Positions 4,110 to 60,400 are shown, numbered from the whole stretch's first letter. The stretch: DNA of 63,986 nucleotides, filler included, from Stramenopiles sp. TOSAG23-6 (GCA_900128565.1; 6 parts of 6 records of this genome joined end to end with filler, not necessarily neighbours in it), one strand, 5' to 3'. Numbers and translations are program-made. The notes: generated from the sequence alone by a model not told the origin.

Positions 4110-6046
4110 AACCAGCAGTAGGAGGAAGGCCATATTCGAGAGAGACACAGAAACCTTCATCATGTATTGTATGAAAATATTGTTTTTTCGAGTTTTTTTG
4201 TTAGGTACAAAATTTCGTATGAAAAAAAAATAAATTCGAAATTGGTAAAGCATTCAAATTTGAAAACGTACATGTGGCTGTGCTTCAACGTCACCACTTG
4301 CTTTAGATGCCATTTGGTCCATAAATCGTTCTCGCTGAGTACGAGGATCATTTAGTTCTGTATAAGCATTTGCTAACTCCATACCTAAAACAAACAATTC
4401 AAAACGCTCTGTCATTTGTGGCTTACTGCGATGGTATATGTATTATGAAAAGATATTTCAAAAATGTAAAATTTGTTAGGTACAGAATTTCGTACGAAAA
4501 AAAAATAAATTCGAAATTCAATTTGAAAACGTACTTGGCCAATGGAGACATCATAGCAGGATGATCACATAGAAATGTCGGGTTAACAAGTTGATCTTCA
4601 ATGAAATGACCTACTAGTTTATCCAATAATCGTGCAGTTGTACGAGGTGGAGCACAATCAAGTTCATGTTTTTCNCATTGAGCAGCTAAAAACTGATTAA
4701 TGTTAGGGTCATCAAGAGGCGGTAACTTAATATTAGCACGTTTTTCAAGCTCAGATGTCATTGATAGTCGTGTCCATGGAGGAGTAAAATCGATCTCAGC
4801 ACCTGGAGAATCTGGTCCATCCTTATGGTAAGTGATCTTATAACCACCAGTGACTTCTTTGACCATTCCAGATATAAGTTTTTCAGTCATGTCCATGAGA
4901 TCATTGTAATCAGCATAGGCCATGTAAAACTCACATGTAGTAAATTCAGGGTTGTGTGTCAAATCCATTCCTTCATTTCTGAATTGTCTACCGATTTCGT
5001 ACACTCGTTCAAGTCCACCTACAACCAGCATCTTCAAATAAAGTTCAGGGGCAACACGCATAAACATATCAACACCCATGTTTTGTGAACAAATATGTTT
5101 TTGTTTTTTTTTGTTAGTAAAAAAAAATCGTTTAGGTACAAATTTTTTTATGGAAAAATTATATATTTTTGAAAGTAATAAAGAACACGTACATATCATT
5201 GTGAAATGTTTTAAATGGTCGAGCGGTAGCGCCTCCAGGAATATCATTCATCATTGGAGTTTCAACTTCAAGAAAGTTTTGAGTATCTAAAAAACGACGG
5301 ACGTAATTGATAATTTTAGCACGGGTATAAAAAATTTCTCTGGATTTGTTGTTCATGATAAGATCGAGGTATCGTTGACGGAAACGAACCTCTTGGTTTT
5401 TAAGACCAGAATAGCCTGTTGGAAGCATATGAAGACAAGGGGTTAATACTTGCATTTCAGTTGGGAAAAGCGACAACTCTCCTGACTTGGACTTTCCAGG
5501 ATGACCAGTTACTCCAACAATGTCACCCCGTTTAACGTCGTGTTTGAGAGCTTCAAATGCTTCTTCACCAGCAGTATATGCACTCTTACTCAACATGATT
5601 TGAATTTTTTCCCCATCTGCACGCAAATCCATAAACATCAATTTTTTACCGGATGCACGAACACTGTGGAGACGTCCAGCAACAGACACTGTTGTTGCTG
5701 TGTCGTGTGATCCAGCCTCAACGTTTCCATATTTTTCACAGAATACTGGAAGTTTCATGGTAACATTAAACTTGTGAGGATACGCAGGTCTTCCAGCAGA
5801 CTCCCATTTTGCTAGCTGAGCTAGTCGATTTTCACGATATTTGGTAGGGTCAACTTCCTCTACAACCTTTTTGGCCTTTGCTTTATTGTTCCCATTTAAC
5901 TTCGCTTTCGCAGCTTTTGCAGCCTTCTTTTTGTCATTCTCCATCTTTTTCTTCAATTTCTTGATGGCATTTTTGGATAAACCTTTAAAGAGAGGATTGT
6001 TCTTATCAGCTTCCTCCATAGCCGCATTGCGCGCACGATGATCCAT
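4110..6046 (-). CDS. KARS1: Cytosolic class II lysyl-tRNA synthetase, 4 exons (6046-5193, 5077-4535, 4437-4272, 4161-4110), 3'-truncated at the inversion junction
   Basis: [108 protein letters not shown] after splicing. Confidence 0.97.
4162..4271 (-). other. GT-AT intron (LysRS intron 3, phase 0)
   Basis: CCA CAT|GTACGTTTTC...ACAATACAT|GAT GAA GGT restores EAQPHDEGFC. Confidence 0.9.
4438..4534 (-). other. GT-AT intron (LysRS intron 2, phase 2)
   Basis: GCC AA|GTACGTTTTC...ATAATACAT|A TAC CAT restores SPLAKYHR; a -2 shift would give Ile instead of conserved Lys. Confidence 0.9.
5078..5192 (-). other. GT-AT intron (LysRS intron 1, phase 2)
   Basis: GAT AT|GTACGTG...CAAAACAT|G GGT restores [12 protein letters not shown]. 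Confidence 0.9.
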
Positions 6047-6278
6047 TCTTGTTAGCGTGTCTTTTTACACTTTCCAATAGCAGAAGTCAACAACAATAGC
6101 TTTCAGTCGCAAGAAGAAGAAGAAGACTTGGTCAAGAAATGACTGAATGACTCGTGTTACCCTAAAAAACACAAACCTGCTTCTTTTCTGATTTTAGAGA
6201 GAGAGAGCGAGCGAGTTGTATCATTCAATATATCGGGAATATTCCTCCTCTCGACGACAAAATCAGCATGATATATAG

Positions 6279-7777: not shown

Positions 7778-8821
7778 CTAAAAGGTCCATTTTCTCCAAC
7801 GATCAACCTTTAGAGGATCGTATTTAAGGGCTGTCTGTACTGCTGCTGCTTTTTGGGAAGGTTTTGCCCCCACTTGAACTCCTAAGCCGAAGCGAAAGTC
7901 ACTAGTCGCGTGATTCATTTCAGATGTTAGTGACAAAATAGTGCTTTCATTCATTCTCTCCTCTAAGACTGCCTTCACACGCCCCGAACCATTGATAGAA
8001 GCATGTACGACCGACTTTGTACTAGGCATGGAGAATTTCCAACCAATATATGTTTGCGACTGTCCAGTGTTCACATCATACGTTAATTGCGCGGCCAAAC
8101 CGACATTATTTTCATTCGGTTTGTTGTAGTGTGAAACTTCTCTAGAGCAATGAGCACTTAGTAAGCCAGTCGTAGTATATGTTCCTAACATTGTTCCACA
8201 TGAATGTTTGTATCTAGCAGCAAAAGCAGCAGCTTTAGTGTCTTTTTCTCGGTCAACTTGAGCTTTGGCACCAAGTGTAAATCGATCAGTCACCTTCTGG
8301 GTAAAAGACGCTGAAGCAACAATTTTCTCCTTATCTTGACGCATTACTTTTGCTGTTATTGCATATGCATCACCCTCTTTTGTCAATTCCGCATCACTCC
8401 ATCGAGCGTTGGTGTTCGTTTTTTCATTTGATATGCCAGTAACAAACTTTGTTCGAACTACACTGTGAACGCCCAAAGAAGGCCATTCCTTTGCCCAATT
8501 TGCACAAACCAAACCTCTACTATCTGCTGAACCAGATACAATACTAGAACCTGTATGATAGAAACCGAGTAGCTGGAATACCCGTTTTTGCATCGATAAC
8601 TTTGACTGCACACCACACCCTTGTCGGAAGTGGTTGGTTAACTCCATACTGAGATCAGTTCCGACAGAAGGAATATTTAGGATGTCGCGGGCTTCAGAGT
8701 ATAAGTTAAGAAACGTTCCCACTGGCTTTGATGGCATAGTAGAGGCTATACTAGGCATATAATCAGATTGAAAGTTTTTATCCATAGTCGGAGGTGCTTT
8801 TGGAGTAGGTAGTGTCGCCAT
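7778..8821 (-). CDS. Tom40/eukaryotic porin-family beta-barrel protein
   Basis: N-terminal PxPVGTFLNLYSEARD, alternating beta-strand pattern, C-terminal MNHATSDFRFGLGVQVG. Confidence 0.65.
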   Translation of the reverse strand: MATLPTPKAPPTMDKNFQSDYMPSIASTMPSKPVGTFLNLYSEARDILNIPSVGTDLSMELTNHFRQGCGVQSKLSMQKRVFQLLGFYHTGSSIVSGSADSRGLVCANWAKEWPSLGVHSVVRTKFVTGISNEKTNTNARWSDAELTKEGDAYAITAKVMRQDKEKIVASASFTQKVTDRFTLGAKAQVDREKDTKAAAFAARYKHSCGTMLGTYTTTGLLSAHCSREVSHYNKPNENNVGLAAQLTYDVNTGQSQTYIGWKFSMPSTKSVVHASINGSGRVKAVLEERMNESTILSLTSEMNHATSDFRFGLGVQVGAKPSQKAAAVQTALKYDPLKVDRWRKWTF

Positions 8822-9997
8822 TTTTGTATGTACGTAGACAAACACGTAGAAGGCTAATTTAATAAGAAGTATCGAAAAATCGAAACACGCGCTGAATGTT
8901 GGAATGGAATTGAGCCAAGCCAAGCAGGTTTGCGTAATGGGTTTTCCAATGGATGTTTCTGGTTGTTTCAGGAATCCGATAACACAATACACATTGAAAT
9001 TTCAAATTTGCAACATTTTTAATCAACAATTTTATTTTTATGTTTATACTTTCTGACAAAGTTGCAGTGATTTGACCGTCATTTTTTTTTATATAAAGTA
9101 CCCATACGAAATATACATTTTGTGGAATTGGAAGTTTTAGCTGAAGTGGAAAATTAGTCATAACGTTCTCGAGCTTATATACATGAAACAAAATTAAAAA
9201 TCATCAGGGTTTGTCTTTGATTTAGGTGAGTGTAAACGGTATTCAAAATGTGGATTATTTATGATACCTGTTTTTTTTTCTTCGAGCACAGTATCTGATT
9301 CTCCGAAAGCTTCTTGCGAATCTAGTGACAGCGGTTTATTGCGGAGAAAGAAATTTCGGTTGAGTATTACATTTCCACCTTTGCCCTGCTCATCTACTGC
9401 AGATTTCCCCATATTCCCCTCTCTCTCTCTATGATGAAGGTGAGGATTAATATATGCTTGATCATGAGACACAACAGCAGGATTTTCCCTGACTCCATCC
9501 CTGACTTCTCTATCAAGACTCCCCCTTATACTCAAGTGGGTATTAGAGGACAGAGTTTTACATTCTGCATCAGCTGGTTCTTTTGTAGGTGCATACATTA
9601 TAGCTTGATATTATTCGTTTCTTTATGGGAACATTTTATAAACATAATAGCAATTAAGTTGTTTAACTGGTCTATCCTTGATGTTGTCGATTCGGGGGTA
9701 CCGTATACAAAAATAAAAGATATAAGGTTTGGGACCTCCAATCAAGAACAAACCTGCGGCGATTATGAAGAAAATCTCCGCGCGATGTCAAATACAAACA
9801 AAACCTTCTGTGCGCTTGGGAGGAACTGTCAAATGCATTGGAATTCCTTGAAGCGATTACTTTTGAGACAGTGATAGGTCATTATTATTGTACGTCGAAG
9901 GGAATTTCAATAGCTCAAACTAGGGTACAAATAGTCTGCATCGCTAGAGTTTAGGCATCACTAATCATATTCCTTAGAAAAACTACTATCAGGCGTA

Positions 9998-10563
9998 ATG
10001 CAGTCGCCTGATTCAGAAGAACTCCCAACATGGCCTTTAAAGAATATGGATACTTTGCCTATTCAGTTTTCGAACGGTGTGAGAGGAGCAGTTTCAACTA
10101 CGCTAAAAGGAAACCTTTATATCAGTCAAAATGCACCAGCTTCATTAATATGTGCGAAGCGCACCACAAGCAATATAAAAACCTATACATCTCAAAATAT
10201 TGAGCGTAATTTCAGCAATAGCATAGTTGAACCAAATATTCGTAAACAAGAGAAGTCCGATGGTTCGTTACATGAAAAAAATTGTTTTCTCCGTATTACT
10301 CGAGTCCTCTGGCGAAACTTTCTGGGTACAAGTGCAGAGTGGTACAAATTGACAATTGTTTTTTCGCTTGTATTAAACATCATACTTCGTTTCACCGCTG
10401 GAAAAGTTGTCACTGCATGGGCTTTACTACCGGAGTTTATTCTCACTCTAGCTATGACATCTGAATGTTATCCTATACAAACAGGTGGTCTCCTAGTCAT
10501 TGAAGGGATGTTACTTGGTCTCAGTACACCTGAAAAGATGTATTCCGAAGTTCTGTTGAACAT
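9998..10563 (+). CDS. nhaB: NhaB-like Na+/H+ antiporter, first exon (gene truncated by contig end)
   Basis: LWRNFLGTSAEWYKL...EFILTLAM..CYP...GGLLVIEG matches the N-terminus of gammaproteobacterial NhaB (LWRNFLGQSPDWYKL...[24 protein letters not shown]); family intron starts at 10564. Confidence 0.85.
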
Positions 10564-10624
10564 GTACGTTTTCATCCTGATTTTTAGATTTTTTTTTTAT
10601 AGAAAATTTTGTACCTAAACAAAA

Positions 10625-10724
10625 NNNNNNNNNNNNNNNNNNNNNNNNNNNNNNNNNNNNNNNNNNNNTTAATTAATTAANNNNNNNNNNNNNNNNNNNN
10701 NNNNNNNNNNNNNNNNNNNNNNNN
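10625..10724. other. Artificial contig linker (N44-TTAATTAATTAA-N44)
   Basis: 100 nt, stop codons in all six frames. Confidence 0.97.
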
Positions 10725-10779: not shown

Positions 10780-11578
10780 AGGTAGTGTATACACTCTAAC
10801 AGAACGATCACTACTCTGAGTATATACCATTTGGTCATGAGGGTCCCAGGTAACACCTTGAACATAGTGAGAATGATCTGAAAGTTTTTCTAATTGCTTA
10901 CGTTTCCTAACATTCCATATAAGTATTTTGGAAAAATATTTCAAAAAAAAAATCGTTAGGTACAACATTTCGTACGAAAAAAAAATTCGAATTTGAAAAA
11001 AAAATAAAACATATAATAGCTGATCCATCGATTGAACCAGAAACAAGCATTAAACCATCCGGAGACCATTCTAGGGTATACACATCATTTGAATGACCAC
11101 CTAGAAGAATTCGCGAAACTGATTTGTTTACGGTTCCTTCAGTGAGATCGTCCCAAGTCCAATCAGAATCAGTAAAATCAGGATTTCGGCACCATATAAA
11201 CACTCTTCCATCATCAGATGCTGACGCGAGACATTCTCCATTCGGAGACCATCTTACACAATTCACTGTTTTTTGATGTCCCTGTAACACACCCATAAAC
11301 GAAACATCGGTTCTTTTTACTGCTTTTTCCGAGTCTTTATTGGTTGCTATACTAGATGAAGTCTGGCTAGTTTCTTTAGACTCTTGTGCTTCAGAAGTGG
11401 AATCAATACACCAAATGCGTATCGTGCTATCAGAGCCACCAGTCGCCATGATTTGTTTGGAAACACCTTTTGTGCCAAATGGAACGGGGCGAAAATCGCA
11501 AGTCAATATTGGAACATTCTTTCCAACGTCACTCTTTGATGACTGATGCCACGCAATTTGCGGGGTTTCGACACGCAT
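10780..11578 (-). CDS. CHAF1B: WD40 protein, chromatin assembly factor 1 p60 (Cac2)-like; exons 11578-11015 and 10920-10780; 3' end missing
   Basis: MRVETPQIAWH, ATGGSD.TIRIW, VNCVRWSPNGECLASASDDG, DHSHYVQGVTWDP, TQSSDRSVRVY. Confidence 0.85.
10921..11014 (-). other. Family intron with AT-TT ends (phase 0)
   Basis: GCT ATT|ATATGTTTT...AAAATACTT|ATA TGG restores SAIIWNV; full internal motif present; 7-nt junction repeat makes the exact register ambiguous. Confidence 0.75.
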
Positions 11579-12871: not shown

Positions 12872-14591
12872 TTATTGATCCTTTGTTACCATTTGCTGCG
12901 GCTTAGGAGGCACACGCACAAACGGTTGCTGGGAATAAACGTGAGGTGGTTGTCCGTACATCAAATGTTGTTGCTGCATGAGCTGTTGATTTCGCATTAC
13001 ACGAGAGTAATCTCCCATCATCATCGGATTCATATTATTTGTCATTGGGATTCCTGGCATTTGATGACCGTGGTAGCCCTGCTGTGTTCGCATATACATT
13101 TGTTGCTGCTGAATTTGCATTGGAGACATGCCATGTATTGTAAGAAAATATTTTTTTTAGAAAAAATCGTTAGGTACAAATTTTGATAAAAAAAAATTGA
13201 GGTAAAACTTAATGGTAAATACATACATGCATCATGCCCGGCATCATGGTTTGTGCTGCAACTCGGGTCATCGAAGCTTGTGCAGCAGCCGCTTTTGCAC
13301 CACCAGGGACAAACACGCTGGATTTCGCATTAAGCTTTGATGTAATTTTTAGTTTGGATTTGAGTTTTGACTTCTTTGGTGCTTCAGCTTTATCAGGTGT
13401 TGCAGCCTTCGCTTGATCATCTTTTGCATCATAAGTATTTTCAGTTTTAACTACTTCATTTATTTTATTTGAAGACTCTACTTTATTGGTAGGAGAATGT
13501 GTAGTATTTTCATGAGTCTTTGTCTGCTTTTGGTTACGTGCAGCTGTAAAGCCTTCCCAAGCATTCTCAGTCACTTTTTCATTTGACGGCGTTTTTTCGC
13601 TTTGTGTTTCGGCATTTCGATTTCCAAGAACACCGGAATAACGGTCTTCAGGGTCCAAGTTAGCATTTGAAACATCTTTTTGATTTCTTTCTTCCTGAAT
13701 GTGAAAGTTTGAACTTTCTGTTCCTTCAATTTCTGACGCGATGCGGGAAGCACGTTTTTTCATTTCATCCGTTTGCTCACCGGCTCCAGGCAAAGCAGTT
13801 GTGTACAGAGACTCATCAAAATTCGACTCGACATTAAACAACCTTTTATTTGCTTCAAATTGATCCCAACTGCCCGTAGCGTGTGTTTCCTCTTTGAAAT
13901 TGTCAGGCATATCACCACTGATCCATTCTGAACCAACGCCTTGCAACTTCCGACCGACTAGGTTTGATATATTTTTCCCTTTGTTTCGCCCAGAGCTGAT
14001 ATCAGAATCAGTAATAAAACCAGGCATACCAGTACGCCTTGTTGGATTTTCAAACAAAGATTCTACTTCCATAGCCCACAAAGAAACATATTCAGTTGAG
14101 TGGAAGAATGCATTTTGCTTATGTGCGGAACTTTTAGCGAACAATGATCCTTCAGTGGTGTTTTTGACTTGGGCACACTTCAGAAGAATTTTATGTTCCT
14201 GCTCGTTTTCTTCATCAATTTTCAATGAGGCAAATACCCCCTCAATAATAGTTCCGTCTTTTAATGAAATACCAACAACACTACCTACTAAGCTTACGGT
14301 TGAATAGAAGAACCGATCTTTTTGTTGGTTATTTACGCTGGTGTCATTTCCCTTCGTTTGTTGCTGCGAATTTTGACCATTTCTTCCGCGTTGAGATCGA
14401 GGATTGGAATTATTTGGTGATTTGCGAGCATCGTTACGGGATCGCGAAGAACGATCACCATTACGACTGCGACCACGCCCACGACCGCCGTTGGTTCCAC
14501 GGCCAGCTGGACGCTTGTTCCCACGAGAACGACCCCCAGATTCGTTAGAGGTGCTTTGGTTTCCTGCAGCATCTCTCCACGAGCGGTCCAT
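12872..14591 (-). CDS. ATXN2: Ataxin-2/Pbp1-like protein (LSm, LsmAD, PAM2, Q/M-rich tail); exons 14591-13227 and 13132-12872
   Basis: FITDSDIS, WDQFEANKRLFNVESNFDESLYTT, HIQEERNQ, EDRYSGV, SKLNAKSSVFVP. Confidence 0.9.
13133..13226 (-). other. GT-AT intron (phase 0)
   Basis: ATG CAT|GTATGT...ACAATACAT|GGC ATG joins in frame to ORF 12872-13129. Confidence 0.85.
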
Positions 14592-14989: not shown

Positions 14990-16562
14990 ATGGAGTTGCC
15001 CTTGGTATCAACCAAAGAGTCAAAGGAAGATGTATTAGCCGCTCGAAGGAAGAACGCTCGTCCTCCAGCGGTTGGAAAAGCTTTCCGGAAACTTCAGCAA
15101 GAATTACTTGTGCTTGAGATCCCCAAAGAAGGTCAGTCCCGGTATGTACACCTTCGTCGTGGTGAGTTGCTTGAAAAAGCACGGTCTTCAATGCTGATTC
15201 CAAAAAAAAAAGAGCCCGTTTCAGTTGATCAAACACCATCTAAGACTCCTCGGAGTCCTCGTTGGCGAAAGAAAGGATTATTTGGACGTTATGCACCTGG
15301 AACTTTACAGTCTCGAGATTTGCGTCGTCTTGATACTAACTTCGCAAGTTCCTCCGACCCTGAAATTGTTGTACGCCGCGGTTCTTTTATCGCAAATCTC
15401 GGAGATATAAAGACCCTGACTCTTTTTGATCGTTGTTTTGTTGTTGTTCCTCCTGGAGCTGACTCCATTTTAAGCATTCTTCTCAAGACGTTTAACACTC
15501 CTGATGTAGATGATAGTGACAATGAAACAGATGGCCTAAATTTGGTTCCAAAGATATCTGCAGAAGTACCGTTTGAGTTCCACATTCTTGAAGCTATCTT
15601 GCGCACAGTATGTTCTCGAGTCGTAGAAGATGTATCACAAGTTCAACCGGCGGTGAAAAAGTTAATGGTAAACGAGTCAATTTCCGCTACTACTTTTCAA
15701 GATATTCGAAAGGAAACTCTGAGAGTATCAAAACTCACCCAAAGAATAAAGGGTCTTCAACATGCTATATCAGAACTATTAGCTTCTGATCGTGATATGG
15801 CATTACTAAGCCTGACACGTGTCAGAGAGCACCCTGAGTGGTATTTAGAAGAGAATGCCAAGGAGTGGGCTCAAGATCACGAAAATGCAGAACTCTTATT
15901 AGAACATTATGTATATCTTAATCATGAATTTTTTACCTAAATTTTTTTTTCATACGAAATTTTNTTACNTANCAANTTTNAGTTTTTTTTTNAANATTNC
16001 TTTCATAGTACATGTAGCAACACTTGATGGAACTTTACAAACTCTAAAGTCATTTGAAATGGAACTCGCTTCATTATCAAATAATATTCGACTACAATTG
16101 GATATGTCCCGTAATAGTCTGTTACGTTTTGAATTGATCATTTCTTCAATCAATTGCGTTGCTGCCTGTGGTGCTTTTGTCTTTGGAGCATTGGGAATGA
16201 ATGTTGATGTGGAAACGGCATTTGATGTATATATAGACGAAAATTCTAAAAATTCAAGCGATGGAACAAATGCATCATCATCGAGACGAACTGGTAATAC
16301 ATTTTGGTACATATTTGGATTCGTCACTTTGTTTTGTGTAATAACTTGGGCATTGTTTATGTGGTATATGTACGTTTTCATCACCATGAATTTCTAATTT
16401 TTTTCCCGTAAACAATTTGTACCAAATTCCGTACCTAACAAATTTTACATTTGACATATTTTTTAAAAATACATGTTTCGGAAAGGCCATATGCTCACAA
16501 TTACACCCAACGAATACTCACGACGTTTATCCTTCAGTCATAGCCGTACTAAACAATCGTGA
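14990..16562 (+). CDS. MRS2: MRS2/CorA Mg2+ transporter; exons 14990-15910, 16014-16369, 16475-16562
   Basis: RDLRRLD, PFEFHILEAIL, ELLLEHY, LDMSRNSL, GMN motif, two TM helices. Confidence 0.93.
15911..16013 (+). other. GT-AT intron (phase 0)
   Basis: CAT TAT|GTATATC...TAGTACAT|GTA GCA restores LLEHYVATLDGT. Confidence 0.85.
16370..16474 (+). other. GT-AT intron (phase 2)
   Basis: TAT AT|GTACGTTTTC...AAATACAT|G TTT CGG AAA GGC gives WYMFRKG after the last TM helix. Confidence 0.82.
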
Positions 16563-17673: not shown

Positions 17674-20045
17674 ATGAAAAGCACACAAGGACAATCTATA
17701 TCAGATGGTGAAGAGATTCCTGAATTTTCAATCCCTCCACAGGAATATTCCGGTCAGTACGATCCTTATACAGCTCTGCAGGAGGTGACAGGATACATAA
17801 GTTATTACCCAGATGATGATTACGCAAGAGTTATGGCGAACCAAAAGAAAGCGTACAAAAGTTCACGTAGTCCCCGCAGTCCACGTAGTCCACGTAGTCC
17901 ACGATATAATGACCAACATTCAGGGGGAAATGAGCGTGTTCGGGTAGAAAAGAAAAGTTCAAAGTTGACTAATCCCTCTAATTTGGTCACAAATTTAAGT
18001 CACCTCGGTTCTCGGCCAGGGTTACCAAGAAAAACAAAGTCACTACAAGATCGACTTATAGCGGCATCTTCAGGAACTAATATGAACATGCGCCAAATGC
18101 AAGGCAAAGCAGCGCAACTTGTACACAGTTCAACTAAAAGTATGGCCCGGAAAAATAGGAAAAATTCACTACCCAAAGTTGGAATTATGGATAAAAATGT
18201 TTTATCTGCGTTACATGCAAAAATAAATGCTGGTGGTGGTGGTGGAAGGAATAGTCAAGATAGTAGAAGTAGTTCTTTGTTGCGCCAGAATTCAAAACTA
18301 TCAGGAGACATTCGAAGGAAGGAACAACAGTTGAATGCAGCCGCGAACAAAATCAAGGATATGAAACAAAAAATTATAGCACTACAAGCTCAAGTGAGTA
18401 ACCAACAGACTTTGATTGTATCTCAAAAACGTATCGTTAATTCTTTATCATATTCGTCAGTAACGAATAAGCGAAATAATCAACAACATAAGGGGAAAAA
18501 AAATGTTCAGAACTTGAGTAACGACCCTCAAGGTCTTCACCCAACCAGTAATAATACTAATATTAGTAAAACCGTTTTTCCAAATACTTCAAACATTTTA
18601 GAATTGAATAGCAAAAATAGTAATAGTATTGATAATAGTAATGAAGCCATTGCGAGGACAAAACTTGCTCATGAACTTTTGTTACTCTCAAGAATGAAAC
18701 AAGAAAAAACAAAAGACTCAAAAAGTAACAATGATATAGATGATGTGACTTATAATGTTGAAAGCTTGCTTCGGTTCAGAGAAAACAAAAAGTTCAGTGT
18801 TATTGGCCTCCCTCAGGACTTTCAAAAATTGACCCTTGCCCTTGCCGAAGCACAGGATTTAAATACTTTAAAAGCTATGTCAATATTATTATATCAAGGC
18901 CTTCAAGGTATAGAGAAGGAATCAAAATCCAATAATGTTTATAGTTTGGTTGATTCACTCCAGAAGAAAATGAAATTTATGTGGAATACTGATATTGTAC
19001 AAATTTGGATTGTTGATACGAAGAAACAAAATTTAATGTGGACACGAGGTGTAGCTAAAAATATTATCAATGCAAATATGAATGATGGTCTTATTGGTGC
19101 TAGTATTAAGAGAAAAGAACGAATCTTTGTGAGGCAAGCCTTTAGTGACCCACGTTTCGTAGCCGCTGTTGATGGTGCATCAGGGCACAAAGTAAGATCA
19201 TTTATGTGTCTACCTTTAATGAGTCCGTCGAATGGCAAATGTCTTGGATGTGTACAAGTTTCGCACTCTAAGAAATTGTTAGATTTCGATGCAGTAGATG
19301 CAATAATATTGAAGCTTGTAGGTTATAAATGTGCTGCTCTGATAGATTCATTACAAAAACAAACAATTGCAGCTGCCAATAATACGAGACAATCATTGTT
19401 ACTGGACGTATATAGCCGTGTATCACTCTCCTTAGGAGACCCATTCAGTTATAGCTCAATAAAGTTTGCAAACAGTATTGAAGAAGAGGCTCGAAAATTT
19501 CTACGATGTGAAGAAGCTAAAATATTTATCTGTGATTCTCCCCCAGTTGATAAAGATTGGGTATCTAGTATGGAGTCAGTTAATCCAAGGCGTCTTTGGA
19601 GTGTTAAGCAAAATACTTACAGTGACTCCATGAAACAACAGTGGCACAGAACTGGAGCTGGTGTTTGTTGGAGTGCTGTAACAAATAGGGAAAGTATCTC
19701 AGGAAGAGATATAAATACTATTCCTCATTTTAATTCTAATATTGATCTGAATACGCGTTTGAGTTTTCTCTGCGTCCCAGTGATAAGTTCAAATCTCCAA
19801 GCTATGTACGTTTTCATTCATAATGTTTTACCTACTTTTTTTTCATAGAAAATTTTGTACCTAACAAAACAAATGAACTTTTTGTGACATCTTTTTCACA
19901 ACACATGGGAGCGCTTGAAATTTCTATAGCGACTTCAAATGCAGAGGAAATCGAGAGAATGAAGAAACTAGCACTTTTATTTACTAAACAAATTGCAAAT
20001 ATAATTGATCAGTATTGGAGAGTGGAATATATCAAAAAAAAATAG
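17674..20045 (+). CDS. Coiled-coil plus tandem GAF-domain protein; exons 17674-19805 and 19907-20045
   Basis: AFSDPRF...VDGASGHKVRSFMCLPL and PHFNSNID..TRLSFLCVPV..MGALEI GAF motifs. Confidence 0.85.
19806..19906 (+). other. GT-AT intron (phase 2)
   Basis: GCT AT|GTACGTTTTC...CAACACAT|G GGA GCG CTT GAA completes the second GAF domain. Confidence 0.87.
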
Positions 20046-21269: not shown

Positions 21270-21335
21270 CTGTATTCTGAAAAAATATTTCAAAAAAAAT
21301 CGTTAGGTACAAAATTTACTATAAAAAAAAAATTC

Positions 21336-21435
21336 NNNNNNNNNNNNNNNNNNNNNNNNNNNNNNNNNNNNNNNNNNNNTTAATTAATTAANNNNNNNNN
21401 NNNNNNNNNNNNNNNNNNNNNNNNNNNNNNNNNNN
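21336..21435. other. Artificial contig linker
   Basis: N-TTAATTAATTAA-N, 100 nt. Confidence 0.97.
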
Positions 21436-21496
21436 CATCATTGGTACAAACTTTCGTACCAAAAAAAAAAATTAAAATTTCATGATGAAAACGTAC

Positions 21497-38078: not shown

Positions 38079-38116
<38 letters not shown>

Positions 38117-42842: not shown

Positions 42843-43061
42843 AAACTTTTTTCCAGCATGAAAATTTACCGTAGTTTTTTTTTTTCAATCATTTTTTTTT
42901 TTTTTTTTTTGTACAACATTTTTTTTTTTGTAAAACATTTTTTTTTTGTAAAACAATTTTATACCAGACGATTATTTTCGATTATTTTCGATTATTTTCG
43001 ATTGTTTTCGATTGTTGTATTGTACTAAATACAAAATGTTTTTCATTTGTTCACAATACAG

Positions 43062-44643
43062 ATTATGTTCAACTTGTTGTAAACATCGAACCACGCCAAC
43101 TTGTGCTTGGTCTACTTGTAACTTGCGCTTATTTGATGGTTTCTATAGTCATAAAAATGAAAAATATTGTAAACAACATTATATAGAATTGACGTGTCCA
43201 AAATGTTCTCAATGTAAATTACCAATAAGTGATACGGTAATAAAAGCACTAAATAAAACGTGGCATAAAGAATGCTTCAAGTGCGTTGTTTGTCAGTGTA
43301 TATTATCAAATAGTAAATTTGGTGGAAAATATAGAGAACATAATTCTCAACCATATTGTGAAAAAGATTGGTTACATCTTCATGCACCTCGATGTGATGT
43401 ATGTCAAAGTGGGATGAAACACTGGACAGTTCATTGTGCATTGACGTCAAAAATAAAAGGAAATGATGTAAAGGCATTGAATTCAAATTCTAGTACGTTT
43501 TGATGATGATTTTTTTTACTATATTTTTTTACTATGGTTTATTATGATGTACTATGGTTTATTATGGTTTATTATGATGTACTATGGTTTATTATAGTTT
43601 ACTATGATTTATTATGATGAACAATTATATATAATATATACCCAATATACCTACTGTAATAACGTAATATACATAATGTTTACAAAGAAAAAACAATTTT
43701 TTTTCACATATTTCTTTACAATACATCAAAGAGTTTAGACAATCATCAGCGTGTATGTGATTCATGTATCTTGAAGTATCCTCCATGTTTCTCTTGTCAT
43801 TCATATGATAAAAGTTCAGTTGATTATAATGATGGACGTGTTATATGTTTATATTGTCATAGTTCTGCAGTGTTTCAACAAAATGACTGTGAAATTNTGA
43901 TGAAAAGAGTAAGAAAATGCTTTCGTGACTTGGGACTAGTTGCATTCACTCAAGATCCACAATTTATAAATTTAACAGCAAAATTATATGATCGATCTAG
44001 TATGATGGAACTTGCAACTCATTCAAGTTGTATTAAACATGGATGTGGAATGAAAGCTCCACTTGGCGTTACGGTGTCTCAAGTAGAAATTTGTACATCA
44101 TATACAACATATACTAATCCTAGCTCAAATGTACATGTACGTTTTCAAAATTGAATTTCAAATTTATTTATTTTTCGTACGAAATTTCGTACCTAACAAT
44201 TTTTCAACAAAAAAAAATATTTTTTCACAATGTATGGACATTTACGTAGAAAACAAATTGATTCAATTGATGAAAAACGATCAGTACAATGTATTGCACT
44301 TCTTCGAGGTCTACCAAAAATTCATTTATCAACTGTTTTGGCGCATGAATTAGGACATGCTTACCTCACTTTAAAAGGATTTCCAAAAATGAACAAAATT
44401 ATAGAAGAAGGTTTTTGTGAACTTTTTGCATTTTTGTGGTTATCAAATGGTAATGCATCAACAACAAATGAAGCATTATTTAGAATACATTTAATGATTG
44501 AAAATAAAGATGTAACATATGGAAAAGGCTTTCGGATTGCACTAGAAACATTTCAGAAATATACAAGACAAAAAGGCAGTACATTTGAAGCATTACAGTA
44601 TATTCTAAAATATTTGTATAGATTTTCAAATTGGCCAAACTGA
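43062..44643 (+). CDS. DA1-like LIM-domain zinc peptidase; exons 43062-43492, 43727-44136, 44236-44643
   Basis: LIM (C..C..WHKECFKC..C..YC), DGRVICLYC, LRGLP...VLAHELGHAYL, EEGFCEL, YGKGFR. Confidence 0.88.
43493..43726 (+). other. GT-AT intron (phase 1) expanded by simple repeats
   Basis: TCT A|GTACGTTTT...ACAATACAT|CA AAG in frame; an in-phase TAG at 43738 is an alternative. Confidence 0.72.
44137..44235 (+). other. GT-AT intron (phase 0)
   Basis: GTA CAT|GTACGTTTTC...CAATGTAT|GGA CAT; contains the perfect palindrome GTACGAAATTTCGTAC. Confidence 0.83.
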
Positions 44644-44875
44644 AAATGATAAAAAGATGATAAAAAACATGATAATATACGTGTTTAGACTTATAAATTG
44701 ACTATACAGTATGGAAAATAATAAATTAATGAAATGATGGACTTAAAAAAACATTCAATTTGTATAAAAAAAAATACTTTTTTTTTTCAAAATTAAGAAN
44801 GATCGGTATTTTTAAACCATTATCAAATACTATTTATATACATAACATTTCACACTGGCTACAACAATAAGAAAA

Positions 44876-44949
44876 GCCCGACTAGCTCAGTTGGCTAGAG
44901 CGAAGCCCTTATGAGGCTTAGGTCGTCGGTTCAAGTCCGTCGTTGGGCA
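44876..44949 (+). tRNA. tRNA-Ile(TAT), intronless
   Basis: GCCCGAC/GTTGGGC acceptor stem, AAGCC-CTTATGA-GGCTT anticodon arm, GGTTCAAGTC, downstream T-run. Confidence 0.92.
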
Positions 44950-44985
44950 ATGATTTCTTTTTTTTTTCCCTCAATTCATCTATAG

Positions 44986-44994
44986 TACCGGGTA
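44986..44994 (+). promoter_or_regulatory. TACCGGGTA candidate promoter motif (representative copy)
   Basis: Also at 31526, 34115 (minus) and 34545, each about 95-190 nt upstream of an ATG. Confidence 0.5.
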
Positions 44995-45088
44995 TCAAAA
45001 ATTATCTCGAGTCGAACGAACGAAAACACGCGTTCTTTCTTTCACCACCACACACGAACAACAACTCATCTCTTTTATATTTCGCACA

Positions 45089-45796
45089 ATGGCTGATGAG
45101 CGCCCGCGGAAGCGTTCAAAACATCGTGCTTCTCGTGATTCTGACTATGGTCTAGTTGGATATTCACGTCCGACTGGAGACGTGGTTGCCGAGTCCCAGG
45201 GTAAAGCAAATGGAAACTATGACTATACAAGTAATCATACGCAGAATAAACATGTATTTAGTTCAAATTCACGAGGAAAGACAACGACACCTAAAGTGGT
45301 AAAAGGTCCTACGTTGTTTAGCATCAACGATGATGCGTCAAAAACAGCAAAAACAACTAGTACAGTTCCTATCTCTCGAGACAATTCTGCGACAACGATA
45401 CAAGATTTTATCGATGACCCCAACAGAATGTCTTGGGACGAATTCAAAAACCTCCATAAAGATAAGTTAGATTTTAGTGGCTCCCAGCAGATGGAGGAAT
45501 ATAGAAGATTATTGGATGCAGATCGTGAATCAAGAATGAAAAACATGAACAAAGCTAAAAAGAAACAGAAAAAGTCTAAAAAACATAAAAAGGACAAAAA
45601 AGACAAGAAGGAAAGAAAACGAGAGAAAAAGGATAAAAAAGAGAGGAAAAAACACAAAAAGAAACGAAAGAAGAAACGTAAACAAAGAAAAGAGACATCA
45701 TCTAGTAGTGATAGTAGTGATACAGACTCAAGTGGACCGGTGAAATTAAGTGAGTTTTTTGGCGGTGTTGCACCCACAGGTAATTCATTCATTTAG
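45089..45796 (+). CDS. FAM133-like Lys-rich protein
   Basis: TIQDFIDDPNRMSWDEFK, MEEYRRLLDADRE, K-rich tract, PVKLSEFF. Confidence 0.75.
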   Translation: MADERPRKRSKHRASRDSDYGLVGYSRPTGDVVAESQGKANGNYDYTSNHTQNKHVFSSNSRGKTTTPKVVKGPTLFSINDDASKTAKTTSTVPISRDNSATTIQDFIDDPNRMSWDEFKNLHKDKLDFSGSQQMEEYRRLLDADRESRMKNMNKAKKKQKKSKKHKKDKKDKKERKREKKDKKERKKHKKKRKKKRKQRKETSSSSDSSDTDSSGPVKLSEFFGGVAPTGNSFI

Positions 45797-46115
45797 AAAA
45801 CATTTAGAAAACATTTAGAAAAAAAAAATTAATTCAAATTTATTATAAGTAGTAGCACCACCCACTAGTAATTTATTCATTTAAGTTTATATATATTAAT
45901 GTATGTAAATAAATATCAAATAATTCTAATTTATCAACCTATATAATTTCACTAATGTTATCTCTTGGCTTGGTCATATCCTACTTGGTGAGAAATTTTA
46001 TTTTTTTCGTGTCAATTTTGAGATTAATTTGCAGCATTTGCTATTGATTGCTATAAATATGCGACACTAACTCTAACTACTTCTACGTAGGATTAATACT
46101 CGGCCAACCGACACG

Positions 46116-53378: not shown

Positions 53379-53433
53379 ATGTATTTTGAAAAAATATTTC
53401 AAAAAAAATCTAAAAAAAATCGTTAGGTACAAA

Positions 53434-53533
53434 NNNNNNNNNNNNNNNNNNNNNNNNNNNNNNNNNNNNNNNNNNNNTTAATTAATTAANNNNNNNNNNN
53501 NNNNNNNNNNNNNNNNNNNNNNNNNNNNNNNNN
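53434..53533. other. Artificial contig linker
   Basis: N-TTAATTAATTAA-N, 100 nt. Confidence 0.97.
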
Positions 53534-53591
53534 GGTACAAAATTTCGTACGAAAAAAATAAATTCGAAATTGAAAAAAAAATAAAACATAC

Positions 53592-54551
53592 ATTTTTCAT
53601 AATAATTGATTTTTGGATTTGTCCTTCTTCAACATTGTTTTCTAGCTCCCCAAGATTTTTGTTTTTGTTAGGGTTATCATCCACATTATGACTTTCAATT
53701 GTTTTACTATGAGATAGACTTTGATTTATAATTTCATTAGGGTTAGGGCTCTCACTCATTTTACGTTTTTTTTCTAATTCAGTTCCCAAAGTTTGACAAA
53801 CAGAATCTCTGACAAGTTCACTTTTGGTATGAGGAATGTATTATGGGAAATATTTTTTTTTTTACATTCGTTAGATACAAAATTTACTAGAAAAAAATTT
53901 AGGTGAAATATTCATATTCAATCCCACCCCCCCCCAAAAAAAAAAGAATTTTTTGTTGGGTAAAAAAAGTTTTTTGGAAAAAAAAAAATAATTTGAAAAA
54001 ATGATGAAAACATACCTAACATTTCGATCTGTAGTACACAAAAGCGGAAGCGATATCATTTGAACTTCATCTTCCTTATGAATAACTTGAAATTTACCTA
54101 TATTTCTTCTTTTCATCTTGTTATTTTGAGTAGTATAGTTTTTAACAGAAATAGAAGATTCTCCCCAACCAGCTTTATGAAGATATTCTAAAGAGACGCG
54201 AGATTTTTCATCTGCTATAGCAACAGCAGACTCAATATCTACTATTTTGGTATGTAGTAAATCTTTAGTTTGAGAAGTTGAATTATCCAAAATTTGTTCA
54301 TCTGAAATTTCCTCTGTCGAACTCACTTTTTTTCTACGATTTTTTATATATAAAGAATCTTCTTTCTGGTGTGTTGTTTTATGTGATGACAAAGACTTGA
54401 CATCAGATATAAGAGCAGCAAGCTGTTGTGCATTTGATTGAACAAAGATAGGCGCTGGTGTGATACACATAAGTAGAGCATCAACAGTTGTCGGACAAGA
54501 GATTGCTAATTTTGAAATAATATAATTAGGACAAACAAATCCTTTACCTTC
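53592..54551 (-). CDS. Internal exons of an HRDC-domain (Rrp6/EXOSC10-like) protein; exons 54551-54016 and 53835-53592
   Basis: EGKGFVCPNYIISKLAISCPTTVDALL...P.FV resembles the Rrp6 HRDC domain. Confidence 0.65.
53836..54015 (-). other. GT-AT intron (phase 2)
   Basis: GTT AG|GTATGTTTTC...ATAATACAT|T CCT in frame with ORF 53478-53789. Confidence 0.8.
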
Positions 54552-54641
54552 ATGGATTTTAGGAAAATATTTCAAAAAAAAATCGTTAGGTACAAAATTT
54601 CGTATGAAAAATAAATCGAAATTGAAAAAAATAAAACATAC
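54552..54641 (-). other. Family intron whose two flanks belong to different genes
   Basis: Phase-1 donor from PSI gene, phase-0 acceptor (AATCCAT|GAA) into HRDC exon. Confidence 0.7.
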
Positions 54642-55652
54642 ATTCTTTGACGTTTGTGATGAATTCATCACGAGTCGTAGTTCTTACAGTTGTAGGTAAA
54701 GGCTTCCCAGTATATGTATTGTGAAAAAAATATTTTTTTTTAAGTTGATAATAAAAACTTCGTTAGGTACAAAATTTCTATGAAAAATTATGGGAATTCC
54801 TGATGAAAACATACATGGACGATGTACTCCAATTGGTTTTTTACTCCTTGGTGGTGGCATTGGTGTTTTTTTTGTGAAACCAACTCTTTGATTCATGACA
54901 ATAAAAGGATCAAATGAGGAGGTTTTTACCTGAATAGCTTTTTCCCGGGCTCGTTTGAACAGAGATACATCAAAAAAAGTCATAAAAGCTGATTTGTTTT
55001 CATCTTGATTTTCATCTTGATTTTCATCTTGATTTTCATCTTGATTTTCATCTTGTTGAGTAGATTTGTATACTTCCATTGTCAAAGATCTCTCTGCCAT
55101 TTTGAATAGTCTAGTAAATAGGGCATACAAAGTCTTTGCAATCGTATATACATTGGCTTTATAAGGAGATTCATAAATTTCAATGTTATACTCTATGGAA
55201 CCTCGTGGGTTAAGTTTTTCCATGTTATTTTCTTCATATTTCAGTACTCTTTCCTCTAAATAAGTCAAACTCTTTTCAATGTCACGAAATATTTGCGGGT
55301 CTGGTGTAAACACATTTTTATTTTGATTCATGTATGAAAAATTATTGCATTTTTTGTGTTTAGAATTAAAACATTGGTATTGATTAGAATCCGAGGATTG
55401 TACCGGCAAAGCACACCAGCCACATGCAGTATGAGCTGCACAACTATCACATGTTTTGTATTGTTTGCAGTCAAATGATTTCTTTATATCATGAAAAGTC
55501 TGTTTAATTTTCCCTGCACAGTCTAGGGTAGAGCAATCCTTTTGAGACTGTGCTAATTTGAGGTACTTTGTCGACTTTGGTAAAGAAATATTTACACGAG
55601 CGCCATTAGAGATATGTACTACTAAAATTAAGAAGCATAGACAATAAAACAT
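54642..55652 (-). CDS. Secreted protein with PSI-like Cys-rich domain; exons 55652-54815 and 54713-54642
   Basis: Signal peptide, C..Y.TC.SC....ACGWC PSI motif, QDEN repeat. Confidence 0.75.
54714..54814 (-). other. GT-AT intron (phase 1)
   Basis: CCA T|GTATGTTTTC...ACAATACAT|AT ACT; the following 72-nt exon is open in this phase and has a stop in phase 0. Confidence 0.8.
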
Positions 55653-56351
55653 GGTAATAGTTTAAAGAATAAAACAACACTGATATGATGGATGTCTTGA
55701 TGTTATCACTTCAACAACTTTTAAAATGTTTAATGCTTTAAAGATTCGGTGCGTAATATTACGTAATATTATTATAATTGTGTTTTACACTTTTAGTCTT
55801 TTTAGAGCCATCAATCTCATTTCCAAAATCGAAACATCAAAAACAATAATAAAATCTCCGATCTAGCAGTTAGATTGAGAAAATGAACAGGTTTGTGACT
55901 AGATCCATTTTGGTTCTCTACTATTTATAATTGGAGGCTTCATCCATCTTTCAAAGGCAATAATTATGGAATTCATATCTCAAAGCTAACGGGTAATTCT
56001 AATGCACCAAGTGACCACAAAACAAAGTTGCTGAGATAACATGAATTAATACATTTTTTTATTACGTTTTATTAGTACAATTCAAAACCTTATTATCAGT
56101 AAGTATATATACTACAAGTAACTAAGTTTAACTTTAACCAGAGTTTCTGAGTAGACACAATGATATAAATAAAACTGATACATTTGACACACTACAAAGT
56201 TCGACATAGTTATTAATTTTGTTTTGTTTTTTTTTAGTACGAAAATGTGTACCTAACGAATTTTTCAATATTATTTTTGAAATTAATGATAAGATATGAT
56301 ACAAACAAAATAAAATTGCTATCTTTGACACAGACAGTTACATCAGAGTTT

Positions 56352-57221: not shown

Positions 57222-57410
57222 TCATGTCACTTAGTTATTTTTAGATTGATTTGTAATCAATCCAATTTTTTTCTTCGGAGGTCTCTTTCTTCGGAGATTA
57301 TTTGCGATTTAGATTGCGATTGATGATCGTCAGTTTTTCTCGATTCCGTCGGTTACTTTTTTATATCTCTTAGCTATCTTACACCAATATTAAAACGTTG
57401 AATAAATAAC

Positions 57411-60400
57411 ATGAAAAGTGTAAATGTTGCAAATAAGTATGAGGATTTCATGAATAGCGTAAGTATCCCCCCAAATGAGGATTTCCCGCGTCTGTACATC
57501 AATCAAGAAATTCTTATTTTCCATCATGGAAATAAATCGTGGGGCCCTGCTACTATTATACAAATTAAAAAAGACGAAGCGGAGTGTTCGTACGAAAAAC
57601 ATACAATACATCACCCGCATAAGTTGAAAAAGAGATGGATACGATTCAGAGATATAAATAAAACCTGGAAGCTTCATGACGACCAGCCTAGTGACGAGTA
57701 TCAAGATGATGAAATAAAAGGCAACAAAAAAACAGCTTCAATTAGTATTATAAGAAAGACTACCCGATTAACAACTACGATACCTTCAAATACAACAAGT
57801 GAAGACTTCGATCAGTATAAGAAAAGGTTAACACGCCATGTAAAAAGGAAGATATCGCCAAGTTTTACACCACTTGCGACGAAGAAAGTTGATAATGCTA
57901 AAGTCCAAAAGGTTCAAAAGCAAATGAACTTAAAATCAACATTTGTAAAGTCAGTAAATGTTTCAAAAAGGCATCACCATCACCATCATCAATCGCCCAA
58001 AAAAGATGTTTTACATGTAAATACATTGAATGTTTTGCCAAATGATACAATTGAGAAAACATCGAAACATATAGTATCTAAATATTGGAAAGAAGGGGTT
58101 TGTCCTGCAACTGGTAGACAGTATTGGTACAACACAGTCACAGATGAAAGTACATATGAAGATCCTACTTCGGGAGGTATGATAATTGAAAAACATACAA
58201 GTAATACATTTAATATTAACAAGTCGGTAAAGATTATTGATGAAAATACATCTGTACAGCAACATTCAGAAACGCAAAAGCAATTACAGCTTCAATTATT
58301 ACAGTTACAACAACAACATGAGCTGGAAAGAACGCAATTGAAACGATCACAAAACAAAAAAGTACAACTAGAAAAACCACAACAAGAGCAACTACTAGAA
58401 ATAAAAAGTACTGTCCATGAAAACAATCCTACTACTACTACTACTACTACTACAACTATTACTACAAATCCTGCAAATAATACTACTTCAATGACGATTC
58501 CTTCAACTACTACAAAAAATGACAATGAAAAACCGACATTTGCAGGAGGAATTCCAACAGATTATATTCAAAAAATATTTCTTTATTTAGATAAAGATAA
58601 TGATGGTTATTTACTGAAATCTGAAGTAGGTCAACTGATGAAGGCTTTAGGCGAACGATTTCCAATAAATACTATACTTAAAAGCGAACTTGACCACATG
58701 TATGTTTTACTTTTTTTCAAATTCGATTTTTTTTTCGTACGAAATGTTGTACCTAACAAATTTAAGGGTTTTTTTTTTCAAATATTTTTCCAAAATACAT
58801 TCTAGGTCATAGGATTGAAACCGCCTTTTCCTCATTATTCGAAGGAAAATCACTCTCGAGTGGTTTTAAAGAAATGGACAGATCCCATATTGGAAAAGTA
58901 TCATTTGAAGATATCATTTGGTGGCACCGAATTCATTCCCCAAAATCTGAATCTGATTATCTTTTAAAAATTCGATATTACTTTCAAAAAATTGATGTTG
59001 ACTGCAAAGGAAGTTTAAATAAAAAAGGTATCGGAAAGTTGGCAAAAAAAGTGGGTGTTGGTTTTGGCAATACTCGATTCGGATTCAAAAATAAAAAATT
59101 GGATGCTGCATTCACTACAATGAGTAGACATTCAACTACTAAATTTACTACTAAGATGGAAAACGGAAAATATCTACAAGAAGTGACATGCGAAGCATTC
59201 ATTGATTGGATGAAAACACTTCACAAAGATATCTTTGAAAAATTTGAGCAAAATAATTCTACAACTAAGAATATGGATACACTTGGCGATAGTAGTGAAA
59301 CCGGTAACTTTGAAAAGGTTATCGGTAATGAGAAACAAAATTTCAACGGTATGAAACCAGAAAAAACAGAAATGAAACCAGAAAAAACAGAAATGTCTCT
59401 ACAAGAAAACGAAATCAAGCACAGAAAAAAACACAGGGAAAAGATAGAAAAAAAACAGAGCCAAAACCACCACCAACAACATTTGATAGAAGAACAAGAA
59501 AAAATTAAAGCGATTGCAAAAGAAGTAATAAAAACACAAGAAATGCATGAGGCTAAATTACACAAAGAACACGCTGATGTAGTAAAACAAATACATAATG
59601 ATGCTTTACGCCAAAAATCCTTTTTTCACGGAGAAGAAGCAAAGATAGCACAAGCAATCCAGAAGGCACAAACAGATATGATGATTCAATCAAAGCACTC
59701 AGAATTAGCAAAACATGTTGAAAAGGCAGCTTTAAGACAAGAGTTGAGTGACTCAAAGCAAGAACTCCACAATGCTGTACTGAAGCAACAAATAGAAGAT
59801 GTGGGACTTAAGTTGAATGAATTGGTTGTTCAGAATAAGAAGCTAGTTCAACGGAATGATGATTTAAAAGAAGAGAAATACAAAGACGTACTTGAATACA
59901 AAAATGCTTTATCATACAATGTTATTACAGCTTGCGAACAAGACACAATCGGAGTAGATGATTTCGTATTGAGTATTACTAATCCTACAACAAACAAAAA
60001 TATAAATCTAAACACTAAAGAAACACATACAAATGCAGATATGAAAGATATTTGCGAAGTATTAATTGATAAAGAAGAACAAATTGAAAATCTTCGAAGG
60101 GAGACTGTTGAAAAAGTAATGAAAGAGCACAAAGAACGAGAGAAGGATGAAAAAAACAAAGAAGGTTCTTCTTTTGAAGAACTAGACCTTATTTTGTCCC
60201 AAATAGATGACGCAGTCCAAAACTCAAGGAATCTTCTCCGTGCTTCTACTAAACAAAAAATTGATCGCATGACGAAGAGCGTTACTGACAATGAGAGTAA
60301 AACAAACAATCTTTTTGTTAACACAAACTTTGATTCTCAATTTGATACTGTGCATACTAATATAAGTCCTGAAGCAAATGCGAGAATACAGGTATGGGCA

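Follow-up and report, generated by a model that had tools for sequence, protein, structure and literature searches.

Introners, as described in Micromonas, Aureococcus, Florenciella, Chrysochromulina, Symbiodinium, Polarella and fungi, are short, near-identical introns lying on the sense strand of unrelated genes (PMC11282704, PMC9860276). In the main accounts of them they occur in marine protist hosts, carry some or all of their own splice signals and are bounded by short direct repeats (PMC11282704, PMC9860276). Here we describe a 63,986-base stretch of DNA (the window) in which genes such as those for LysRS and a kinesin are interrupted by introns that share these features. From their frames, homologues and signals, we think it likely that they are U2-type (major) spliceosomal introns made by a mobile introner family of ~100 nucleotides (nt) in a MAST-3-like stramenopile (MAST, marine stramenopile). 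In contrast to the introner families set out in those accounts, which begin with GT, GC or GA and end in AG (PMC9860276, PMC11282704), about nine in ten copies here have AT at the 3' end. They also differ from introners in that no terminal inverted repeat (TIR) was found in the copies beyond (AT)GTA/TAC(AT), and in that the boundary repeat AT/G is not universal in the family. The latest introner survey takes AG and AC as 3' sites and dropped families with unfamiliar sites unless they were supported by RNA (PMC12130899).

Two other systems are close analogues. As summarized in PMC11282704, the introns of Fritillaria borealis are likewise mostly non-canonical, recently gained and transposon-derived, and an adapted major spliceosome has been proposed for them; their ends are diverse, mostly AG-AC or AG-AT, with TIRs and target-site duplications (TSDs), whereas the introns described here have a strict 5' GT within GTAYGT. 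Here, unlike in Fritillaria, the last base alone departs from the canonical pair. Amoebophrya (Syndiniales) is, in the same summary, a marine protist with more than 60% non-canonical introns and repeated elements, but with highly variable boundaries, TIRs, TSDs of 3-5 nt and a U1 small nuclear RNA (snRNA) reported missing (PMC11282704). The family in the window, in contrast, keeps to a single pair, GT-AT, and its 5' consensus is strong and of U1/U6 type; as the summary describes them, neither Fritillaria nor Amoebophrya combines an orthodox 5' GT with an invariable AT at the 3' end. The minor (U12) spliceosome tolerates non-AG 3' ends, and rare GT-AT and AT-AC introns are known. Elsewhere these U12 introns are a tiny minority, whereas GT-AT introns are the majority here. 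Neither the 5' site nor the branch motif of the latter resembles those of U12 introns, for which 34-52 nt from branch to 3' end is also too long a distance. In the accessible text of the MAST genome papers, exon-intron boundaries or splicing appear in the methods only (PMC5778133, PMC9903769), and the word 'intron' does not occur in that of PMC12614181. A full-text literature search, which did not cover the supplementary tables of the introner surveys, returned no description of GT-AT introns in MAST-3 or another lineage. This agrees with an earlier note on this sequence, which knew of no described lineage with such introns.

The window consists of six pieces of ~10.6 kb each, every one slightly shorter than the one before, joined by five identical linkers (44 N, TTAATTAATTAA, 44 N) at 10625-10724, 21336-21435, 32045-32144, 42743-42842 and 53434-53533. 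This is the pattern of contigs sorted by size and strung together; adjacent pieces come from separate contigs and have no physical linkage. The earlier note had listed 21 introns, and all 21 coordinate pairs have GT at the start and AT at the end on the coding strand. Column counts over these introns gave the donor consensus GTAYGTTTTCAT and the acceptor consensus ATATTTTTTCACAATACAT, with G+1, T+2, A-2 and T-1 invariant, T at +6 in all 21 and G at +5 in 19. The donor pattern GT(A/T/G)YGTTTT proposed in the note describes the general case but not the introns at 15911 (GTATATCT), 13133 (GTATGTAT), 5078 (GTACGTGT) and 40596 (GTACATTT). Its claim that frame is restored in all three phases held throughout: removal of GT..AT gives open frames on both sides in one phase for 21 of 21 introns (phase 0 in 6, phase 1 in 5, phase 2 in 10). 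The flanking open frames extend up to 716 and 999 codons and the shortest downstream frame has 28 (at 16370); at 32151 the 19 'open' upstream codons consist of 6 real bases and linker N, which leaves 20 of the 21 upstream frames checkable. Paired matches to position matrices numbered 32 in the window and 0-3 in each of 20 shuffles, a comparison that is circular for the 21 introns from which the matrices were derived.

While the 21 entries proved valid, the list was incomplete: it lacked 10917-11010, 61616-61707, 37800-37910, 63414-63512, 54548-54641 and several halves of copies at contig ends. Our census of the window stands at 23 frame-restoring GT..AT introns (the 21 listed and two more), 2 ambiguous family copies (37800-37910 and 63414-63512) and 2-3 introns that use AG. 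The dominance of AT acceptors noted earlier is thus upheld for this sample, with 23 firm and 2 ambiguous AT ends against 2-3 AG ends, and GT..AT is the sole rule of fixed termini compatible with every copy. In the two added introns (10917-11010 and 61616-61707) the family G at +1 is A; an open frame is obtained from the following GT, 4 nt further in, and the AT end is kept. These variant copies argue that G at +1 and the terminal AT are what is read. Two matrix-scan 'introns', 21270-21496 and 53379-53591, were discarded, as each crosses an artificial linker between two contigs, and a generic frame-joining search of the window for more GT-AG or GT-AT introns gave mostly noise. The introns and copies are as follows (a slash within a peptide marks the junction).

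4162-4271, minus strand: LysRS, family GT..AT intron, phase 0; junction EAQPH/DEGFC as in P0123 and P0124
4438-4534, minus strand: LysRS, family GT..AT intron with a unique register; junction SPLAK/YHR; AT-AC would turn the conserved K into I
5078-5192, minus strand: LysRS, family GT..AT intron; junction product identical to P0124
10917-11010, minus strand: WD-repeat-like gene, added family intron; A at +1, next GT used, AT end; ..SGSIDGSAII/WNVRKRK in frame
13133-13226, minus strand: ataxin-2-like gene, family GT..AT intron (termini, frame)
15911-16013, plus strand: MRS2-like gene, family GT..AT intron (termini, frame)
16370-16474, plus strand: MRS2-like gene, family GT..AT intron (termini, frame)
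19806-19906, plus strand: GAF-domain gene, family GT..AT intron (termini, frame)
20759-20871, minus strand: alkaline ceramidase, family GT..AT intron, phase 0; upstream exon not ending in AT; gapless against 8 homologues
21270-21335, minus strand: family copy cut by a contig end, 3' half present, preceding the ceramidase exon; ACAG end (AG acceptor)
28186-28280, plus strand: FAD oxidoreductase (DAO) gene, family GT..AT intron (termini, frame)
28381-28477, plus strand: family GT..AT intron; out-of-frame CAG 5 nt ahead of the AT
29513-29600, plus strand: family GT..AT intron (termini, frame)
32151-32266, plus strand: family GT..AT intron, 6 nt past a contig start; upstream exon uncheckable
33216-33320, minus strand: enoyl-CoA hydratase gene, family GT..AT intron ending AATAAAT (termini, frame)
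36786-36945, plus strand: kinesin-13, family GT..AT intron; P-loop FMFGQTGSGKT restored
37096-37205, plus strand: kinesin, non-family intron with canonical GT..AG; product VEILAGQVFDLL shared with the orthologues P0255 and P0256
37800-37910, plus strand: kinesin, family copy open to in-frame read-through; ambiguous acceptor, either the AT at 37910 or the AG at 37883
37997-38205, plus strand: kinesin-13, family GT..AT intron; upstream exon ends TT; RMKA/CTLPRTW gapless
40596-40744, minus strand: Kelch-repeat gene, family GT..AT intron (termini, frame)
43493-43726, plus strand: LIM-domain gene, family GT..AT intron with a unique register
44137-44235, plus strand: family GT..AT intron ending AATGTAT (termini, frame)
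53836-54015, minus strand: family GT..AT intron with a unique register
54548-54641, minus strand: family copy; AT at 54552 gives TGA at the junction, AG 4 nt downstream (or a CC end) restores a 226-codon frame
54714-54814, minus strand: family GT..AT intron (termini, frame)
58700-58800, plus strand: family GT..AT intron joining frames of 432 and 999 codons
61616-61707, plus strand: added family intron; A at +1, next GT used, AT end
63414-63512, plus strand: uncertain family GT..AT copy; removal leaves 3 codons before a stop (possible last exon)

Further support for removal at GT..AT is provided by homologous proteins. Six junctions fit their homologues without a gap: three in LysRS (4162, 4438 and 5078), one in the ceramidase (20759) and two in the kinesin-13 gene (36786 and 37997). 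The statement of the earlier note that removal rebuilds conserved motifs is borne out residue for residue in LysRS, against P0123 and P0124, and in the P-loop of the kinesin. The ceramidase junction TFLSI/VEPKLN is gapless against the 8 homologues aligned (11 were returned). The kinesin was assigned to kinesin-13 from Klp10A/KIF2C, and a representative search gave the orthologues P0255 and P0256 (73% and 69% identical); the junction ATAFM/FGQTGSGKT is gapless against both, and the conserved C-terminal region follows 37997-38205 in frame. The AT acceptor at 36945 is required to encode the Walker A loop. A public protein, P0253, is 99% identical to the unspliced DNA of 36463-38274 and reads through two family introns; at 36786 the last seven residues of the Walker A loop are missing from it, as expected if an in-frame AG 21 nt downstream had been taken as the acceptor. 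P0253 is evidently an existing, faulty gene model of this kinesin sequence. The intron at 28381-28477 contains a textbook TTTTCACAG 5 nt short of its AT, but this site is out of frame. For the DAO gene, the homologues in PDB are too distant for comparison at its three junctions. Taking frames and homology together, we are fairly confident that the segments are spliced at GT..AT.

Directly after the kinesin exon ending ...DKRRARR lies a family copy truncated at its 5' end (36459-36505, TAAC onward), and the ~45 residues that P0255 has between ...DKRRARR and FVDVFVRVRP are absent from the kinesin of the window. Their loss appears to be a deletion or an assembly collapse at an introner.

The introns align as copies of one ~100-nt sequence, with the layout GTAYGTTTTCA, then ..GAATTTCGAATTT.., TTTTTTCRTACGAAATTTTGTACCTAACAAA, a variable A/T stretch and ATATTTTTTCACAATACAT; the copies end in CACAATACAT after a T-rich tract. 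Among the twenty copies of at most 120 nt, median pairwise identity is 69% and the maximum 93%, compared with 40% for shuffles aligned alike, and the copies with the highest identity are located in unrelated genes. A scan with a 31-nt core (up to 7 substitutions) gave 24 matches, 16 inside the listed introns and eight elsewhere, and the latter yielded two frame-restoring GT..AT introns, contig-end halves and one degenerate intergenic copy near 56230. The in-frame copy at 37800 was found through the read-through in P0253. Overall, ~25 complete copies and 6 contig-end halves are present in 64 kb. Six of the ten contig ends at linkers stop within a copy and a seventh end lies 6 nt before one, suggesting that high copy number broke the assembly. 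Every genic copy is in sense orientation, the signature of an introner-like element. The earlier note had overlooked that the introns are copies of one mobile repeat family, so that the AT end belongs in the first place to the element.

The boundary repeat AT/G is complete at 10 of the 21 introns, partial at 8 more and absent at 3, including the conserved Lys codon at 4438. As the codon there must have been Lys before insertion, the repeat is not obligatory. No autonomous partner element was found in the window, and a 27-nt pattern of the family core had no match in genome-contig or viral-contig collections. The degenerate copy, at ~56200-56300 (plus strand), lies between two minus-strand genes, and neither a GT donor nor an ACAT end can be recognised in it; all other copies found are within genes and in sense. 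In many copies the stretch that separates the 5' site from the branch-like motif, ~12-60 nt into the copy, also holds an internal inverted repeat, GAATTTCG...CGAAATTC, which could be a remnant of element ends or a small hairpin.

U2-type introns have a 5' GT within an extended GTRAGT or GTAYGT, a branch site of CTRAY or TACTAAC type ahead of a pyrimidine-rich tract, and a terminal AG. None of the 21 listed introns has this AG. Upstream of the end, a CTRAY motif, mostly TACCTAAC and branch-like by sequence, is found in 18 of the 21 at 34-52 nt from the 3' end; no AG occurs between the motif and the 3' end in 13 of these 18, and positions -16 to -11 are T-rich. U12-type introns have the 5' site RTATCCTT and a branch point 10-26 nt from the 3' end. 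The donor consensus here does not match that 5' site, and where a U12-type intron would have TCCTTAAC at ~10-26 nt with no pyrimidine tract, the copies have TACCTAAC at 34-52 nt and a T-rich tract. GTAYGT, the CTAAC-type motif, the T-rich tract and the scarcity of AG are signals of the major spliceosome and not U12-like. The nonconventional introns of euglenids have variable borders, pairing between the ends (+4..+6 with -8..-6) and no pyrimidine tract. The copies do not resemble them, since their own borders are fixed (GT and AT), they have a T-rich tract, and no stable or shared fold was predicted (mean z -0.42 over 13 copies). Hairpin and end-pairing models were tried and set aside, as they gave no consistent fold and no convincing covariation.

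Canonical AG acceptors are also used in the same genes, and for one intron the orthologues prove it. The fourth intron of the kinesin (37096-37205) is not a member of the family; it has GT, TACTAAT and TATAG, and both P0255 and P0256 read VE(I/L)LAG, the exact product of GT-AG removal. The alternative of a CT..AA intron at 37091-37200, which would keep the tyrosine of 'EIY', is ruled against by the VE(I/L)LAG of the orthologues. Among family copies, one or two need AG: 54548-54641 and the half copy at 21270-21335, which precedes a ceramidase exon and ends in AATACAG. The splicing machinery thus appears to take both YAG and YAT, rather than having switched from one to the other. The spliceosome retuned to AT acceptors, or the dedicated second pathway, that the earlier note proposed would be conjecture at this stage.

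In the explanation that we propose, every copy brings along the signals for its removal: GTAYGT(TTT), a 5' site like that of yeast, a strong branch-like TACCTAAC, a T-rich and AG-poor stretch, and the conserved 3' end CAYAATA-CAT. The segment excised from the RNA would start precisely at the G of GT and finish with the T of AT, with YAU taking the role of YAG in the second step while the same machinery still uses YAG. The preference of the exons for AT/G mirrors the AT/G of the intron end and may reflect either a 2-3 nt target duplication or a preference in insertion or for a proto-splice site; it parallels the AG/G repeat of ordinary introns. We lean, if only slightly, towards a free-living marine, MAST-3-like stramenopile lineage with a major spliceosome whose second step accepts, and mostly uses, U instead of G as the last base, and with an AT-ending introner that exploits this and supplies most introns of the genome.

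Several points weigh against this reading. Removal at the RNA level, the agency of the major spliceosome and the exact cut sites are all what we infer from reading frames in DNA and from homologues. In yeast and mammals, the second step is strongly impaired when an intron has U as its last base. The terminal AT is conserved no better than its neighbours (A-4 and A-7 are each present in 20 of 21), so its invariance could mean young age and not selection. Three to four copies fit GT-AT poorly (54548-54641, 63414-63512, 37800-37910 and the truncated 36459-36505), and with chimeras in the assembly (a palindromic first contig and a truncated LysRS) isolated odd cases may be artefacts. The register of the cuts is also less certain than the earlier note implied. 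Upstream exons end in AT at 16 of 21 sites and downstream exons start with G at 12 of 21, so that several cut positions yield identical mRNA. A single register is possible in just three introns (4438, 43493 and 53836), and even at 4438 a +1 shift also encodes Lys; protein alignments resolve residues, not nucleotides, and synonymous alternatives are inseparable. As for the sites that the note had put forward as informative about register, 4438 and 53836 are indeed unique and 32151 is not informative, whereas 20759, like 37997, excludes the AT-AC register yet permits other shifts.

AT-AC is a pair known for U12-type and rare U2-type introns, and on a rival reading most copies would be AT-AC introns cut 2 nt upstream at both ends, and the few with no AT upstream would be spliced differently or be defective. 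The AT that ends 16 of the 21 upstream exons fits this, the resulting mRNA would be the same in 13 of 21 introns, which also counts against our own reading, and the terminal pair is established (PMC11282704). In 8 of 21, however, AT-AC is impossible; it would replace the conserved Lys of SPLAKYHR by Ile at 4438 and place an Asn in a hydrophobic column at 20759, and the two copies with A at the family +1 position need the next GT for frame. All copies belong to one family, for which two rules are less economical than one, and neither the 5' end, which is unlike RTATCCTT, nor the branch-like motif, at 34-52 and not 10-26 nt from the 3' end, is that of a U12 intron. We consider AT-AC splicing of most copies unlikely.

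A reading that dispenses with splicing would take the copies for ordinary miniature transposons that stay in place, having disrupted genes or belonging to a single-cell assembly that is chimeric or in decay; the restored frames would then reflect recent insertion and nothing else. The chimeric features of the assembly and the youth implied by identities of up to 93% would suit it, as would a case for removal built on DNA frames and homology. It is nevertheless hard to reconcile with more than 20 insertions in essential and otherwise intact genes (LysRS, kinesin-13 and others), with genic copies that are all in sense where random insertion would leave about half antisense, or with the intact GT, branch-like motif and AT of each copy; flanking frames open up to 999 codons, and in-frame replacement sites where the +1 G is mutated, speak against it as well, and we regard it as very unlikely. 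The non-AG end, unusual for a spliceosome, and the partly palindromic ends, (AT)GTA...TAC(AT), might instead point to elimination from DNA, like the internal eliminated sequences of ciliates, or to non-spliceosomal removal from RNA by self-splicing or euglenid-like end-pairing. But the conserved GTAYGT and CTAAC are spliceosomal signals, folding of the 13 copies gave no stable or shared structure at the mean z given above, the two ends show no clear covariation in variant copies, and the TA-bounded ends typical of ciliate elements are absent. Group I and II introns are larger than ~100 nt, the size of these copies. Such elimination or non-spliceosomal removal is extremely improbable.

The 3' AG is among the most conserved signals of eukaryotic gene expression. 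If spliceosomal removal at GT..AT is true, AT in about nine of ten sampled introns, combined with an orthodox GT and branch motif, is a natural experiment on 3' splice-site recognition, and if RNA data confirm it, this splicing machinery accepts an ending that other eukaryotes reject. It would then be a system in which to study the G+1/G-1 contact, Prp8, Slu7, Prp18 and possibly a co-evolved U2 pairing with TACCTAAC. It would also add a new case in which a mobile element shapes, or takes advantage of, what the spliceosome tolerates. Gene finders restricted to GT-AG would mis-annotate this lineage, as with P0253, which is left without its ATP-binding loop. The existing annotation of this organism is likely damaged wherever family introns occur, and for these uncultured plankton both the number of genes and the functions assigned to them may be biased. 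Introner surveys based on annotated AG or AC ends would miss the family.

The window is gene-dense with long exons and has a base composition of ~31-39% G+C. Its proteins are clearly eukaryotic and nuclear (LysRS, a eukaryotic porin, ataxin-2-like and MRS2-like proteins and the kinesin); they also include the ribonucleotide reductase small subunit, a Kelch-repeat protein, an Obg GTPase, the alkaline ceramidase and a LIM-domain protein. The top match of the reductase is 94% identical and has the EukProt name 'GSMAST32...', a label that we take to be MAST-3-like from the single-cell genomes of Tara; the other reductase matches are mostly from stramenopiles (diatoms, oomycetes and Parmales). The nearest LysRS proteins have 90% and 84% identity. 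We read the host, on these protein matches, as a MAST-3-like heterotrophic stramenopile. A search of metagenomes with LysRS exon 2 gave 80 loci, every one at most 68% identical, and thus no close relative. In a search of sequencing runs, 12 contained 5-16% of the words sampled from 36001-46000; the records give 10 of these as RNA, from seawater metatranscriptomes, and mark the other 2 as probable DNA, and the result has no bearing on expression.

Other features of the window were noted in passing. An Rfam scan of the window gave two tRNA genes only, at 34239-34322 and 44876-44949 (plus strand), and no snRNA. The first contig (1-10624) is a near-perfect palindrome: 10-660, 754-1296 and 1624-2844 hold open reading frames (ORFs) whose mirror images lie at 9965-10615, 9329-9871 and 7781-9001, the mirrored blocks as a whole covering 10-2847 and 7781-10615. 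LysRS ends abruptly after ...TAGWG near 4100 and continues into an unrelated ORF starting MVKDVILVNGG. Both look like the chimeras typical of amplified single-cell assemblies. Finally, in an ORF at 25814-26827 (plus strand), directly following a 1008-aa ORF with HMG boxes, Pfam gives a Restriction Enzyme Adenine Methylase Associated (RAMA) domain (E 2e-19), which is unusual in a eukaryotic nuclear gene.

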